Notes under the pieces: model-generated
Database searches by the model: none
What the model was told of the DNA's origin: nothing
Seen by the model: the letters and a program-made list of their open reading frames with translations, nothing else
In this document: piece by piece, positions 1-7,025 of the stretch
How positions within the stretch are numbered: position 1 is the first letter of the stretch
How the letters are laid out: the number at the start of each line of letters is the position of its first letter
NCBI GenBank assembly: GCA_964519955.1
Contig: CAZFLM010000014.1
Span: 40,673 to 104,672 of the forward strand
Length of the DNA stretch: 64,000 nt
Direction: 5' to 3'
DNA from: an uncultured Chthonomonadaceae bacterium
Lineage (GTDB): Bacteria; Armatimonadota; Chthonomonadetes; Chthonomonadales; CAJBBX01
Translations under genes and position numbers: made by a program

Positions 1-1017
1 CGAGAGCTGCGGCAGCGCCACGTGGAGATGCGCGCGCCCCTCGTCGGGCGCCTGACCGGCCCCATCCGAGCCCGTCAGCACCAGGTTCGGCGCACCAGGC
101 AGCTCGCGCCAGAGGCGCCCATCGACGGGCGCGGTGCAGTCGCAGTAGAGCGCGCCGCCTGTCAGCAGCGCCGCCCGGGCCGCGAGCAGCAGGCGATCCG
201 CGTCGTCCGAGCCACCATCCAGCTCGACGGCCAGCATCCTCAGGCCCAACTCGGCACATGCCTGAGCGGCGAGCGTCCGCTTCCCGGCGCCCTCCGGGCC
301 GCCCAGAGACACCCGGATCGGCGGCGCGGCAGGACCATGCTGCTCCCGAATGGCCCGCACGAACGCGACGATGCGGTCCCTCTCCGCCGGGTAGAGGCAC
401 GGAACGCCGACGGACGTGGTGCGGCCTGTCTCCACATCATCCGCGAGCAGGAGGCCGACGATGGCCGGATCAACCGACCACGGCGCGGACACGGACCACC
501 GCCCGGCGGGCACGTCTCCCGGCAACGCGAGCCGCCAGCGGACCAGCGCGCAGCCCGGGCCCAGCGGATCGACGGCTGGCCACTCGAACAGCTCCGCGGC
601 CAGCCGGACCGTCGCGTAGCATGCTCCCGCGTTGTCCTGCAGGTACCCGTAGACGCGCTGCAAGCGCGGGTCCACCTCTGCGGCGGCGGCAAGCGTGAGC
701 AGGTCCAGTTCGCGATGGGTGAGGCCGAGCGCACGCGCCAGCCGCAAGGCCGCCGCGGATGGGTCCGACGCCCTCTCGTCGGCTTCCTCCACCGCGTCGC
801 GCAGGTCCCAGGGAGCCCGGTCGTCACGACCAGCGCCGCCACGCAGCGCCCGGTCCACCTCCGCGTGGGTGATGGCCAGGCCCTGCGCGGGCTCGCCCTG
901 CGCCTGCTCCCACTCGGCGCGCAGCCGGTTCGCGAGAAGCGCCGCGCGGAGCCGCACGCGCGTTACGAACGCGGGCGCCTCGCCGACGAGTTGGCGGGAG
1001 AGTGGGCTGGCGATCAT
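1..1017 (-). CDS. P-loop / AAA+-like ATPase at the Afp15/Pvc15 position of the contractile-injection locus; N-terminal 339 codons only, continues beyond window start
   Basis: Absent from the ORF track because it has no stop in the window. My own translation from ATG 1017-1015 (ATGA overlap with the upstream stop) stays open to position 1: MIASPLSRQLVGEAPAFVTRVRLRAALLANRLRAEWEQAQGEPAQGLAITHAEVDRALRGGAGRDDRAPWDLRDAVEEA... A Walker-A-like LGGPEGAGKRTL is encoded at 306-271. The gene directly follows a DUF4255 gene, as in eCIS loci. Confidence 0.55.
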   Translation of the reverse strand, partial: MIASPLSRQLVGEAPAFVTRVRLRAALLANRLRAEWEQAQGEPAQGLAITHAEVDRALRGGAGRDDRAPWDLRDAVEEADERASDPSAAALRLARALGLTHRELDLLTLAAAAEVDPRLQRVYGYLQDNAGACYATVRLAAELFEWPAVDPLGPGCALVRWRLALPGDVPAGRWSVSAPWSVDPAIVGLLLADDVETGRTTSVGVPCLYPAERDRIVAFVRAIREQHGPAAPPIRVSLGGPEGAGKRTLAAQACAELGLRMLAVELDGGSDDADRLLLAARAALLTGGALYCDCTAPVDGRLWRELPGAPNLVLTGSDGAGQAPDEGRAHLHVALPQLS

Positions 1018-2243
1018 GGCTGCACCCACTTCGCGGGCGCGGCCTCGACGCCATTGACGCGTACCCGCACCGCGTATGTCCCCGACGGAAACGCGGTGGG
1101 AGGCATGAACGTCAGGTGCTCCGCGTCCGCGATGGCGACCTGGCCCGCGGCGGGGACGCCGGCGACCTCCGCGAGGCTCGTGGCCCCGATGATGACCTCC
1201 GCGTGGCCCGCCGTGAAGCCCGTGCCGACGAGAGCGAGCGGCACACCGGCGAATACCAGCAACGGGCCACCCGCGTCGGAGACCGTCGGCGCGATGGCGA
1301 ACGGAACCGCGTTCGACTGCTGCCCGGCCGCGTCCGCGACCACGAGCGAGAAGACCTGCGGCTCCGGCACTCCTACCGTCGGCGCCCGCAGCACCAGGCG
1401 GTTGCTCGTAGCCTGGCCGCCCACGCTCCAGCTCGTGATGTCGATGGCCGGCGCGCCGCCGACGGGAACGAGCAGGACCCTCTGCGCGAGCGCCATCTGC
1501 CCGTAGATGCGGAAGGTCTGGCCGGGGCCGACGACAGCGGGCGAGCGGTCGACGCTCTTCGTCGCGCCCGTGGGCGTCTGGTAGCGCACCGTGACGGTGG
1601 TCGAGACGATCTCCGGAGCCTCGCCAAGCGGCAGCACAGCCGGCCCAGCGGTGAGACCGTACGCCTCGACGGGCTTCGCGTCGGCGGGCTGCTCCTCCGG
1701 CTCCAGGAACACCACGCTCGCCCGGTACACCACCGCGAGGCGCAGGGGCTTGGTGGTCGCCTGCCACAGCCGGCCGAGCGTATCGTAGGTCTCCGTCTCG
1801 ATCGTGATGCGGAACAGCTCCTCGCGCCCGCCATCCGGCACCGCGGCCTTGACCACCGGGTTGTCGTGCAGCCACTTCATCGCCACGCTCATCACCTGCT
1901 GCTCCTCGACGTACGCGCCCGCCGAGTGCGCGGTGAGGAGATAGTACAGCTCCAGGCCGAGGGGCTCGTACTGGACCGGCGGGAAGCTGCCCTGGGTGAC
2001 CGGCATGCTGACCGTCGGCGGCGTGTTGACGTGGTGCTTGCTCGGCGCGACATGGAAGAGGAACACGCAGAGCTGGCACCCGCCCTGGTCGAAGGCGTAG
2101 TCCGGCGCGTTGCCGGTGACGGTGATGTTGGGCCGGGTGCCGCCGCCCTCGGGAGGCCACAGGCGCGTGTTGTCCATCCCCTGCTTCAGCAAGGCGATCA
2201 GCCGGTCGGTGACGATGGAGAGGTCGAGCACGCCGATGGCCAT
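1014..2243 (-). CDS. DUF4255 / Pvc16_N-family protein (Afp16/Pvc16-like tail terminator/cap of eCIS)
   Basis: 409-aa ORF. The N-terminus MAIGVLDLSIVTDRLIALLKQGM... and the overall layout are typical of the DUF4255 family. An AAGGGGA RBS precedes the start, and the stop overlaps the next start (ATGA). Confidence 0.75.
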   Translation of the reverse strand: MAIGVLDLSIVTDRLIALLKQGMDNTRLWPPEGGGTRPNITVTGNAPDYAFDQGGCQLCVFLFHVAPSKHHVNTPPTVSMPVTQGSFPPVQYEPLGLELYYLLTAHSAGAYVEEQQVMSVAMKWLHDNPVVKAAVPDGGREELFRITIETETYDTLGRLWQATTKPLRLAVVYRASVVFLEPEEQPADAKPVEAYGLTAGPAVLPLGEAPEIVSTTVTVRYQTPTGATKSVDRSPAVVGPGQTFRIYGQMALAQRVLLVPVGGAPAIDITSWSVGGQATSNRLVLRAPTVGVPEPQVFSLVVADAAGQQSNAVPFAIAPTVSDAGGPLLVFAGVPLALVGTGFTAGHAEVIIGATSLAEVAGVPAAGQVAIADAEHLTFMPPTAFPSGTYAVRVRVNGVEAAPAKWVQP

Positions 2244-2254
2244 CGGGATTCCCC

Positions 2255-6055: not shown

Positions 6056-6143
6056 GGGACTCCTCCCGTTCGAGACGTGGGTTGCCACAAGCACGGAATG
6101 GGGCGCGGCGGCGGCCGGCAGCCCCGGGATCGCAGTCGGTAGC

Positions 6144-7025
6144 CTAGACAGCCATCAGCGTGCCGCCGGCCTGGGCCGCATCGCTGGCATCGGCCCCGCC
6201 GCTGAGCAGGATCGTGCCGGGGCTCGGCACCGCGTACTCGGCGCCCGCCGGCTTCGACACCTCGACCAGGAAGTTCCGGGCGAGCGTCGCGTCGATGGTG
6301 CTGGTCTTGAGGGCGGCGAATGACTGCGTCCAGACCACCTGCAGGTCGAACGCCTTCGGGTCCGTGGCCGGGCCGGCGTTGGAGACCGTCACCTTCGTCA
6401 GGTCGCCGGACGCGCCCGCGGCCCAGGCGTCCAGCGTGTACGCGGTCCCGCTCCCGTCGTTTGCATCGATCGCCGCGGCCGAACGGTCGGTGTCACTGCC
6501 GCCCGTGAACGAGTAGGCGCCATTCTTGGGGAGCAGCTTCACGTCGTCGGCATCGCGTGTTCGCGCCAGCCCCGCGTCCGTGCCCGCCTTGGTCTCGGTG
6601 CCGAGGACGGCCTTCACGTGGCGCGCGCTGGCGGAGTCGACGCTGAGGCCGGCGTAGGCGTCGGTCTGGATGATGGCGAGGTCGAAGAGGATGGTGCCGG
6701 AGCCCGGCGGCGACTCACGGACGTTGGAGATGGCGATCTGGATGCGGTTGCCGGACGCGCCCGCCTGCTTCGCCTTGAAGACCATGGCGGCGGCGGGAGG
6801 CGGCGACTCACCGGGCACCAGAGCCCCGGCGCTAACCAGCCGCCCGAGGTAGGCGTCCAGCAGAGCGCGCTGCTCGGTGGTGAAACCGGCGGGGCCCGCC
6901 CAGGCTGTCGACGCGATCTTGCCGTCGTCGAAGCCGAGCGCGGTCAGGGGAACGCAGAACTGCTGGCCCGAAGAAGCATCGGTGAACGTGACCGGGCCCG
7001 TGCCGACAACAGGCGTGGCGGCCAT
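6144..7025 (-). CDS. First gene of the eCIS operon; unknown protein with an internally duplicated sheath-insertion-like motif
   Basis: 293 aa, with a GGAGG RBS 6 nt upstream of the ATG. Two similar segments are present: GNRIQIAISNV...FDLAIIQTD and GDLTKVTVSNA...FDLQVVWTQS. Confidence 0.6.
   Translation of the reverse strand: MAATPVVGTGPVTFTDASSGQQFCVPLTALGFDDGKIASTAWAGPAGFTTEQRALLDAYLGRLVSAGALVPGESPPPAAAMVFKAKQAGASGNRIQIAISNVRESPPGSGTILFDLAIIQTDAYAGLSVDSASARHVKAVLGTETKAGTDAGLARTRDADDVKLLPKNGAYSFTGGSDTDRSAAAIDANDGSGTAYTLDAWAAGASGDLTKVTVSNAGPATDPKAFDLQVVWTQSFAALKTSTIDATLARNFLVEVSKPAGAEYAVPSPGTILLSGGADASDAAQAGGTLMAV

Follow-up and report, generated by a model that had tools for sequence, protein, structure and literature searches.

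A probable contractile injection system operon of lineage II at the edge of a 64-kb DNA window

Layout of the locus and families of its seven genes

The window analyzed here is a stretch of 64,000 nucleotides of contig CAZFLM010000014.1, with a GC content of ~69%. Its first 7025 positions hold seven genes, g1 to g7, among which are the sheath, tube, cap and ATPase genes of a contractile injection system (CIS), a member of the phage-tail-like family known as extracellular CIS (eCIS). Genes were called over 1-7025, and all positions are given in coordinates of the 64-kb window (Table 1). All seven genes lie on the minus strand, and the intergenic spacing from g1 to g7 is 88, 9, -4, 1, 11 and -4 nt, the g7 start sharing 4 nt with the g6 stop. 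An earlier sequence-only reading of this DNA had described seven co-directional genes with spacings of -4 to +88 nt, and the open reading frames (ORFs) and gaps are exactly as it claimed.

The GC content at third codon positions (GC3) is 0.87-0.94 for all genes but g5 (0.91 for g1), which supports six of the seven frames, and Shine-Dalgarno-like sequences stand ahead of g1, g2, g3 and g6. For the sheath gene g2, the listed GTG start at 6094 sits upstream of the conserved N-terminus MPV.PTYPG, and the ATG start was used. No RNA element was found in the 88-nt spacer between g1 and g2 (fold z-score -0.14), a Rfam search of the whole window matched 0 families, and no intrinsic terminators were found in 1-8200.

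Table 1. Positions of the CIS genes and of other features in the 64-kb window
Feature	Position	Strand	Evidence or remark
g1, function unassigned, 293 aa	6144-7025	minus	ORF; GGAGG ribosome-binding site before ATG
g2, contractile sheath (Afp2/Cis2 type), 534 aa from ATG	4451-6055	minus	PF04984 and PF17482
g3, inner tube (gp19/Afp1/Cis1 type), 169 aa	3932-4441	minus	PF06841 and TIGR02241
g4, 258 aa, two CPECG motifs	3159-3935	minus	Conserved ORF
g5, Pro/Ala-rich, 300 aa	2255-3157	minus	ORF with conserved ends
g5, middle part	2420-3037	minus	GC3 0.75 versus 0.91-0.94 in adjoining genes
g6, tail terminator/cap (Afp16/Pvc16/Cis16 type), 409 aa	1014-2243	minus	Pvc16_N
g7, N-terminal 339 aa of Afp15/Pvc15/Cis15-type ATPase, leaves the window	1-1017	minus	PF22977 winged-helix domain and P-loop
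Sigma-54-type (-24/-12) match, TGGCACGTAGAATGCA	7094-7109	minus	69 nt upstream of g1 ATG
PIN-domain toxin gene	7375-7749	minus	
101-aa partner of the PIN gene	7753-8058	minus	No Pfam match
Sigma-70-like site	8085-8057		At the PIN gene pair
Transporter stretch	8099-12931		Includes the tyrosine recombinase gene
Tyrosine recombinase	9444-10439	minus	Phage_integrase, 1.7e-16; GC3 0.95
Two prepilin-type N-methylation-motif proteins	35305-37376	minus	Short partial DUF1559 match
Three consecutive T2SSF-family paralogs	47071-52188	plus	GspF/PilC-like platform proteins
DnaJ-TPR ORF	51126-53372		Overlaps third T2SSF paralog

Profile hidden Markov model (HMM) searches with Pfam and NCBIfam, judged against curated cut-offs, identified the sheath, the tube and the cap. 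The g2 sheath protein matched PF04984 (51.8 bits, cut-off 31.4, E 1.1e-13) and PF17482 (41.8 bits, cut-off 26.9, E 1.2e-10), and has thousands of homologs at 55-61% identity. Its nearest PDB matches are 8bky/9gtp and 8bl4/9gts, phage tail sheath proteins of 534/539 aa that align over the full length (E 1.7e-62), and which we take to be the sheaths of Streptomyces CIS of subtype IId. Afp2/3/4, Pvc2/3/4, the Anabaena All3325 sheath and other sheath chains of CIS were also matched in the PDB. The Afp, PVC, Anabaena All3325 and other CIS sheath chains align with g2 over its C-terminal half only, with E about 1e-42 for Pvc2 and Afp2/3.

The g3 tube protein matched PF06841 (117.2 bits, cut-off 28.2, E 5.9e-34) and, in NCBIfam, TIGR02241 (117.7 bits, cut-off 62.4, E 3.3e-34). 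Its PDB matches are an Anabaena All3324 chain, Afp1 and the tube of entry 7adz, presumably that of AlgoCIS. Residues 11-193 of the g6 cap protein matched Pvc16_N (PF14065, DUF4255; 95.7 bits, cut-off 27, E 3.6e-27). The C-terminal extension of g6 carries an Ig-like (TIG/E-set) segment, with a weak match to CGTase domain D (E 0.003), and the Nostoc ortholog gave a weak TIG match. No CIS chain was found in the PDB with the g6 profile. The sheath, gp19 tube and Pvc16_N/DUF4255 assignments of the sequence-only reading thus all lie above the curated HMM thresholds, and the objection that they might fall short of them does not apply.

The g7 ORF, previously described as a P-loop protein running off the window, corresponds to the N-terminal half of an Afp15/Pvc15-type ATPase. 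It contains a PF22977 winged-helix domain (40.1 bits, cut-off 27, E 4.1e-10), and alignment with full-length orthologs of 640-708 aa showed that the fragment comprises the winged-helix region and the first P-loop domain. The sequence GPEGAGKRT is the conserved Walker A motif of the first, N-terminal nucleotide-binding domain, which follows the pattern G..G.GK(R/Q/K)(T/S)L. In the full-length orthologs, which have 34-41% identity to g7 over the shared part, the second half is a PF00004 AAA domain (1.7e-30 in the Armatimonadota ortholog), and ~300-370 further residues of g7, including the canonical AAA domain, are predicted past coordinate 1.

The combination of sheath, tube, cap and ATPase supports the proposed eCIS identity. 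Sheath and tube families are common to phages, and these two genes could likewise come from a tail module, either that of an R-type tailocin or that of a prophage of myovirus type. However, an AAA+ ATPase together with a Pvc16_N terminator sets eCIS regions apart from phage tails (Vladimirov et al., PMC10020575), so that the pairing of DUF4255 with an ATPase, invoked earlier as an eCIS signature, is a published discriminator. Myovirus tails and R-type tailocins are distinguished by a tape measure and chaperones, and by a lysis cassette or head genes, and have no AAA ATPase or Pvc16_N (PMC10020575, PMC12210884). The gene content of the window is not of this kind.

Syntenic relatives and the predicted remainder of the operon

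Relatives of the locus were found by tblastn with the seven window proteins. The same seven-gene order is present in metagenome-assembled genomes (MAGs) of Acidobacteriota (L004/L014), Terriglobia (L009), Armatimonadota (L007) and a deltaproteobacterium (L011), in two Nostoc genomes (L006/L008, L012), Caulobacter ginsengisoli DSM 18695 (L010) and an Actinoplanes sp. (L013), in two ENA metagenome contigs (L002, L003), and on two Streptomyces anthocyanicus plasmids (L015, L017). Because the identical order of seven genes recurs in unrelated phyla, we regard the arrangement as far beyond chance. Identity to the window proteins in the syntenic loci is highest for the tube (69-82%), followed by the sheath (51-60%), g4 (40-53%), the cap (33-42% over the full length), the N-terminal half of the ATPase (32-41%) and g1 (28-40%). 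The values are lower in the frameshifted ENA loci L002/L003 (tube 49-52%, sheath 36-42%).

The relatives indicate what may follow past coordinate 1. After the ATPase gene they carry a ~80-aa ORF, a 217-238-aa CIS_tube-like protein, which is the tube initiator, and a ~90-aa ORF. These are followed by Phage_GPD and Phage_base_V as two separate ORFs, which together constitute the spike, and by a ~80-110-aa tip-sized ORF. Next come GPW_gp25, an 826-aa protein, an 824-aa Baseplate_J protein and an 864-aa Tail_P2_I protein, and a DUF6519 protein and a giant ORF follow on the linear Streptomyces plasmid. Interspersed with these genes are a PG-binding/CHAP protein and proteins of the DUF4157/eCIS_core type, some of which have Aspzincin. 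The placement of DUF4157 varies, being directly after the ATPase in Nostoc and after the spike in Armatimonadota, and in other relatives none falls within the stretch covered. These DUF4157/eCIS_core proteins are ~460-730 aa long, and none in the stretches covered is of the size (>2,000 aa) of the effector Tme. Baseplate, spike and effector genes had been expected past coordinate 1, and they are present in every syntenic relative with enough downstream sequence; for the locus itself the expectation is borne out through these relatives only.

The DUF6519 protein is ~890-950 aa long and follows Tail_P2_I in L017 (22281-24950, S. anthocyanicus plasmid NZ_CP109276.1). In Nostoc L006 (5360-8221), a DUF6519 gene adjoins the locus on the opposite strand. 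DUF6519 is probably a conserved peripheral component of this CIS type, such as a fibre or a part of the baseplate periphery.

Some features of the locus are shared with the canonical type VI secretion system (T6SS; i-iii), whose parts likewise comprise an AAA+ ATPase, a sheath that contracts and a tube made of Hcp. The canonical T6SS is defined by a TssB/TssC sheath and a TssJLM membrane complex, and has no Afp11, Afp14 or Afp16 homologs (PMC6899500). In the window the sheath is instead a single 534-aa protein of phage type (PF04984/PF17482), not a TssB/TssC pair, and a Pvc16_N cap is present. Among the relatives, Baseplate_J and Tail_P2_I are present and genes of the Tss membrane complex are missing. 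The gene content of the window is not that of a canonical T6SS, and we consider the chance that the locus belongs to one to be negligible.

The seven visible genes might also be all that is left of a decaying or truncated cluster that no longer makes a functional particle. Such decay may have precedents among the relatives. The ENA loci L002/L003, which were found with the ATPase fragment (36-37% identical), show fragmented calls, with apparent frameshifts in the sheath, g4 and cap genes, and in L003 transposase genes of the IS110 and IS1595 families lie both upstream and downstream of the CIS genes. The fragmentation reflects either long-read assembly errors or decaying loci. In these two loci, fragmented calls and insertion sequences are found within the cluster, and the rest of the present operon lies outside the window. 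Against this, all seven ORFs here are intact, and for the six complete ones the length agrees with the range of the orthologs (sheath 534 aa versus 526-541 aa, tube 169 aa versus 169-170 aa). Their GC3 is native, ribosome-binding sites are present, and starts and stops overlap as is usual in translational coupling. With a source contig of 114,915 bp, the edge of the window does not coincide with the end of a contig. A remnant is therefore improbable.

Accessory genes and flanking sequence

Between and ahead of the recognizable components lie three genes, g1, g4 and g5, which we judge from their conservation to be subtype-specific components of the system. For g4, the four cysteines C85, C88, C190 and C193 are invariant in 9 orthologs, and probably form one Zn site. 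The g4 protein scored 21 bits against PF12322 (T4_baseplate), below the cut-off of 24.5, and the match covers residues 52-101 only. PF12322 was matched by 8/9 g4 orthologs (best E 2.5e-9), and DUF6760 by 3/9 in the C-terminal part; there is also a weak match to phrog_150, 'baseplate hub'. An exhaustive HMMER scan of 1.84 billion representatives, with clusters at 50% identity, gave 5,454 clusters of g4 homologs at E<=1e-3 and 2,085 at E<=1e-10. Sequence and profile searches of the PDB found no relative of g4, a literature search on PF12322/DUF6760 in CIS found nothing relevant, and the AlphaFold2 single-sequence model had a predicted local distance difference test score (pLDDT) of 43.

The PF12322 matches among the orthologs liken g4 to the baseplate-hub proteins of phage T4, and the family presumably represents T4 gp26/gp51. 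With the tube gene on one side and g5, the putative lumen protein, on the other, g4 has a position that recalls the hub gene block of T4, which runs 26-51-27-28-29. The likeness has limits, as the PF12322 score of g4 itself is under the Pfam cut-off over its short stretch of residues, and the four-Cys motif and the DUF6760-like C-terminal part are not known to be T4 features. We propose that g4 may be a zinc-binding hub or tail assembly factor with four cysteines, related to the T4 hub family.

The g5 protein consists of 22% Ala and 20% Pro. It was compared among the window, Acidobacteriota, low-GC Nostoc, Armatimonadota, the deltaproteobacterial MAG and Streptomyces. The N-terminal motif SYL..I...PPR is conserved, as are the C-terminal 55 residues (VHIG.I.VQ...L.RGF.S..GLRQG), and the middle is a variable, unalignable and compositionally biased linker, presumably disordered. 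The space from g4 to g6 is 257-330 codons in all loci compared, and the ORF is kept in length and at both ends across phyla, low-GC Nostoc included. GC3 is 0.77 for g5 overall and 0.85 over the last 55 codons, and its low value in the middle part (Table 1) would fit a linker of low complexity that evolves fast and is under weak codon selection. No match to g5 was found in Pfam, PHROG or the PDB.

The g5 ortholog is easily overlooked by annotation. On the Streptomyces plasmids (L015 17016-17911; L017 6987-7870), the g5 frame is fully open, and is annotated as its last 53 codons or absent. In the JGI gene calls for the contig of P0007, the ortholog is likewise missed or cut to the last 53 codons, the frame being open.

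As a hypothesis only, g5 could be a lumen protein or a ruler-like assembly protein, extended in shape and held in place by its conserved ends. The idea of a ruler is suggested by the conserved ends, the variable middle and the constrained length, together with the lack of the Afp14 tape measure in lineage II, to which the locus is assigned below.

In every related locus, the gene next upstream of the sheath gene is an ortholog of g1. The protein is predicted to be beta-rich, and gave no match in Pfam, NCBIfam, PHROG or the PDB. A homolog profile search returned 5 proteins, low-complexity words probably swamping the candidate step, and the AlphaFold2 model built on this 5-sequence alignment had a mean pLDDT of 49. 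We considered whether g1 is a paralog of a sheath domain, and rejected this after hhalign against the sheath profile gave a probability of 6.8%, which is not significant. We propose that g1 may be an accessory structural protein. Searches of the PDB with g1, g4 and the C-terminus of g5 retrieved no CIS chain.

Upstream of g1, the 349-nt gap that separates it from the PIN gene contains the sigma-54-type site TGGCACGTAGAATGCA, and no sigma-70-like site was found in this gap. The 64-kb window has no other match to TGGCAC-N5-WTGCW, and 0.09 matches are expected from shuffles. The site is not conserved upstream of the g1 orthologs in other phyla. We regard TGGCACGTAGAATGCA as a possible promoter of the operon.

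One joint reading draws several of these features together. It places the CIS in a Planctomycetota/PVC-type host, and makes g5 a non-helical Pro/Ala-rich 'ruler' that runs along the tube lumen, replaces Afp14, is anchored by its end motifs and has g4 as partner; it adds that the operon might be driven by a sigma-54 promoter. As a whole we find this joint reading doubtful. A search of the open literature found no paper describing a CIS in Planctomycetes.

Further upstream, the PIN-domain toxin gene and its partner, a putative antitoxin, form a VapBC-like pair directly upstream of the CIS, with a sigma-70-like site at the pair (Table 1). The tyrosine recombinase gene of the minus-strand transporter stretch is in an odd place, 15 nt downstream of a fused solute-binding-protein and permease gene and 38 nt upstream of a second ABC permease gene. 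Elsewhere the window is ordinary chromosome, with genes for IleRS, an FAD-linked oxidase, SHMT, PurL, a CCA-adding enzyme, panC-coaBC-coaX-panB, HtrA and ABC transporters, and no rRNA or tRNA genes were found in the window. It also holds the three T2SSF-family paralogs, the third of which is overlapped by a DnaJ-TPR ORF that is probably in part a mis-called long ORF, and two proteins of prepilin type that match DUF1559 in part. As this family is expanded in Planctomycetes, the match is a weak pointer to a Planctomycetota/PVC host, the only one in the window and too short to name a phylum.

The flanks bear on the prophage or tailocin explanation. The tyrosine recombinase lies 2.4 kb upstream of the locus, as might be expected beside a prophage, and the weak matches of g4 to T4 baseplate-hub and PHROG 'baseplate hub' families would suit a phage tail. 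However, the recombinase sits inside an ABC-transporter operon, and we do not take it as evidence of a prophage because it is wedged between ABC-transporter genes and has native codon bias (GC3 0.95). As stated in the sequence-only reading, capsid, terminase and lysis genes are missing; none of these, nor a portal gene, is among the Pfam-annotated genes of the remaining 57 kb (7-64 kb). In the syntenic loci too, no head, portal or terminase genes adjoin the cluster; the flanks are housekeeping genes (RelA, L28, SurA, UvrD), and the relatives carry DUF4157 effectors. Together with the Pvc16_N terminator and the predicted AAA ATPase, this makes a prophage tail or tailocin highly improbable.

Interpretation and comparison with known systems

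The reading that we favor, with a probability of roughly 0.9, is that positions 1-7025 represent the promoter-proximal third of a ~20-kb chromosomal CIS operon of the eCIS superfamily, lineage II. The proposed order is g1, sheath, tube, g4, g5, cap, ATPase, initiator, split VgrG, tip, gp25, two wedge genes of Afp11 type, Tail_P2_I, and peripheral or effector genes. Besides the nearby recombinase, several points weigh against this reading. The baseplate, spike and effector genes of this locus would lie outside the window, and its completeness is predicted from relatives with no more than 35-60% identity. For g1, g4 and g5, the proposed roles are drawn from weak homology or none, and the structure models of g1 and g4 were unusable. 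Finally, kinship with the Streptomyces davawensis group, considered below, is taken from the published order of locus tags and not from sequence comparison.

From the gene identities, conservation and synteny described above, we infer a model of assembly, cargo and target. A spike/baseplate complex, encoded past coordinate 1, would nucleate the particle, and the g3 tube would polymerize on the tube initiator. The g2 sheath would assemble round the tube in an extended, high-energy state, until a hexamer of the g6 cap halts growth and locks the distal end; Afp16 is reported to end tube elongation and to regulate the formation of the sheath (PMC6899500). The g7 ATPase would remain outside the particle, would be needed for function, and probably loads DUF4157-tagged cargo. 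In S. coelicolor, particles form without the ATPase, which is however required for function (PMC10020575), and Pvc15 is described as loading payloads into the tube (PMC11495950). Contraction of the sheath would then drive tube, spike and cargo through a membrane.

The word 'extracellular' is a family label for this locus. A CIS of the same family could instead stay in the cytoplasm or at the envelope and affect the producing cell or its kin, in cell death, release of extracellular DNA or development. This is a variant of the preferred explanation, not an alternative identity. The nearest solved sheaths (8bky/9gtp, 8bl4/9gts), presumably those of Streptomyces CIS, point in this direction. The CIS of S. 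coelicolor (CISSc) is cytoplasmic and mediates cell death (PMC12237407, PMC10020575), the Anabaena CIS is thylakoid-anchored (PMC8894136), and the S. davawensis CIS promotes release of extracellular DNA and sporulation, with its Tme effector targeted to the cell envelope (PMC11126660). On the other hand, the syntenic hosts include unicellular diderms (Caulobacter, Acidobacteriota), for which a developmental role is less obvious. The window contains no localization cue, and anchoring or fibre genes would lie past coordinate 1. We consider a non-extracellular mode of action to be a serious possibility, at somewhat less than even odds.

The locus is one more chromosomal example of a class of phage-tail-like injection machines that is very large and has spread horizontally, and, if the host lineage proves to be without a described CIS, it would matter mainly on that account. 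The genes g1, g4 and g5 are kept with the sheath and tube over at least 6 phyla and thousands of protein clusters, and by sequence search no solved CIS structure contains any of them. We see in these genes candidates for the assembly and length-control functions that are still unexplained in lineage II, which lacks a recognizable tape measure.

Compared with Afp of Serratia entomophila and PVC of Photorhabdus (subtype Ia), the locus shares a gp19 tube, a phage-type sheath, a Pvc16_N cap and an Afp15-type ATPase. Those systems have three sheath paralogs (Afp2-4), two tube paralogs (Afp1/5) and the Afp14 tape measure, whereas here there is one sheath and one tube, and the N-terminal half of the sheath is unlike theirs. 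The genes g1, g4 and g5 have no sequence-detectable counterpart there. In Afp and PVC, the ATPase and cap genes close the structural operon. Here, in contrast, the cap and ATPase genes lie between the tube module and the predicted spike/baseplate module.

The eCIS core of Chen et al. 2019 has eight components. Of these, the Afp1/5-type tube, the Afp2/3/4-type sheath and the Afp16-type terminator are identified in the window and the Afp15-type ATPase is represented by its N-terminal part, whereas Afp7 (tube initiator/LysM), Afp8 (VgrG), Afp9 (gp25) and Afp11 (baseplate J) are present after the ATPase in the syntenic relatives. Six subtypes of eCIS in lineages I and II have been defined, and every subtype has a conserved gene order of its own (Chen et al. 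2019, PMC6899500). Lineage II has no recognizable Afp14, and has two or three conserved genes that are specific to the subtype and lack known domains; afp8 is split into gp27-like and gp5-like ORFs in IIa, IIb and IIc, two afp11 copies occur in IIa and IIc, and IId has a single contiguous afp8 and one afp11 (PMC6899500). The complete relatives of the window locus resemble the IIa/IIc systems of the database dbeCIS in having a split afp8, two consecutive Afp11-sized genes, a PAAR/tip-sized gene and no recognizable Afp14, and in carrying two to three conserved subtype-specific genes without known domains. Because the complete relatives show these published traits, the architecture appears to be IIa/IIc-like, with g1, g4 and g5 as the expected subtype-specific genes. 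The published subtypes were set by Afp11 phylogeny, and the present assignment is made from the gene layout of the relatives. The Tail_P2_I (Afp12-like) gene in the Streptomyces plasmid locus leans toward IIa.

The CIS of S. coelicolor and S. venezuelae (IId) presumably have the nearest solved sheaths. They also have a Pvc16_N-family cap and an AAA ATPase, and no annotated tape-measure gene. They differ in gene order, as the S. coelicolor ATPase gene (sco4259) is upstream of the sheath (sco4253) and tube (sco4252) genes. These model Streptomyces clusters have been contrasted with the CIS of S. davawensis, which has a singular tube gene, two Afp11 and extra genes (PMC11126660).

The S. davawensis JCM 4913 CIS belongs to a cross-phylum group that is distinct from the typical Streptomyces systems (IId) and is listed in dbeCIS (Nagakubo et al. 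2024, PMC11126660). The group spans Actinobacteria, Proteobacteria and Chloroflexota, one of its loci being on a plasmid, and its Tme trait is a very large effector gene with an N-terminal DUF4157, immediately upstream of the baseplate genes in conserved synteny (PMC11126660). A Tme-like gene of the present locus would lie past coordinate 1. The S. davawensis locus tags are 7569 for the sheath, 7570 for the tube, 7576 for Tme, 7578 for the initiator, 7580 for VgrG, 7582 for the tip and 7584/7585 for the Afp11 homologs (PMC11126660). As in the window, sheath and tube adjoin and there is one Afp1/5-type tube gene, and, as predicted for the present locus, the effector/ATPase region lies between the sheath/tube and baseplate genes. 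The relatives of the window share with it a small extra gene after the initiator and after VgrG, a tip and two Afp11 homologs. The order and spacing of the locus tags in the paper suggest that the CIS of S. davawensis shares the layout described here. The earlier claim that the gene order departs from that of Afp and PVC holds, but the order is standard in a large cross-phylum lineage II group in dbeCIS, and so is not new. Judged by its genes, it is the norm of a large catalogued group, to which the present locus adds one further member.

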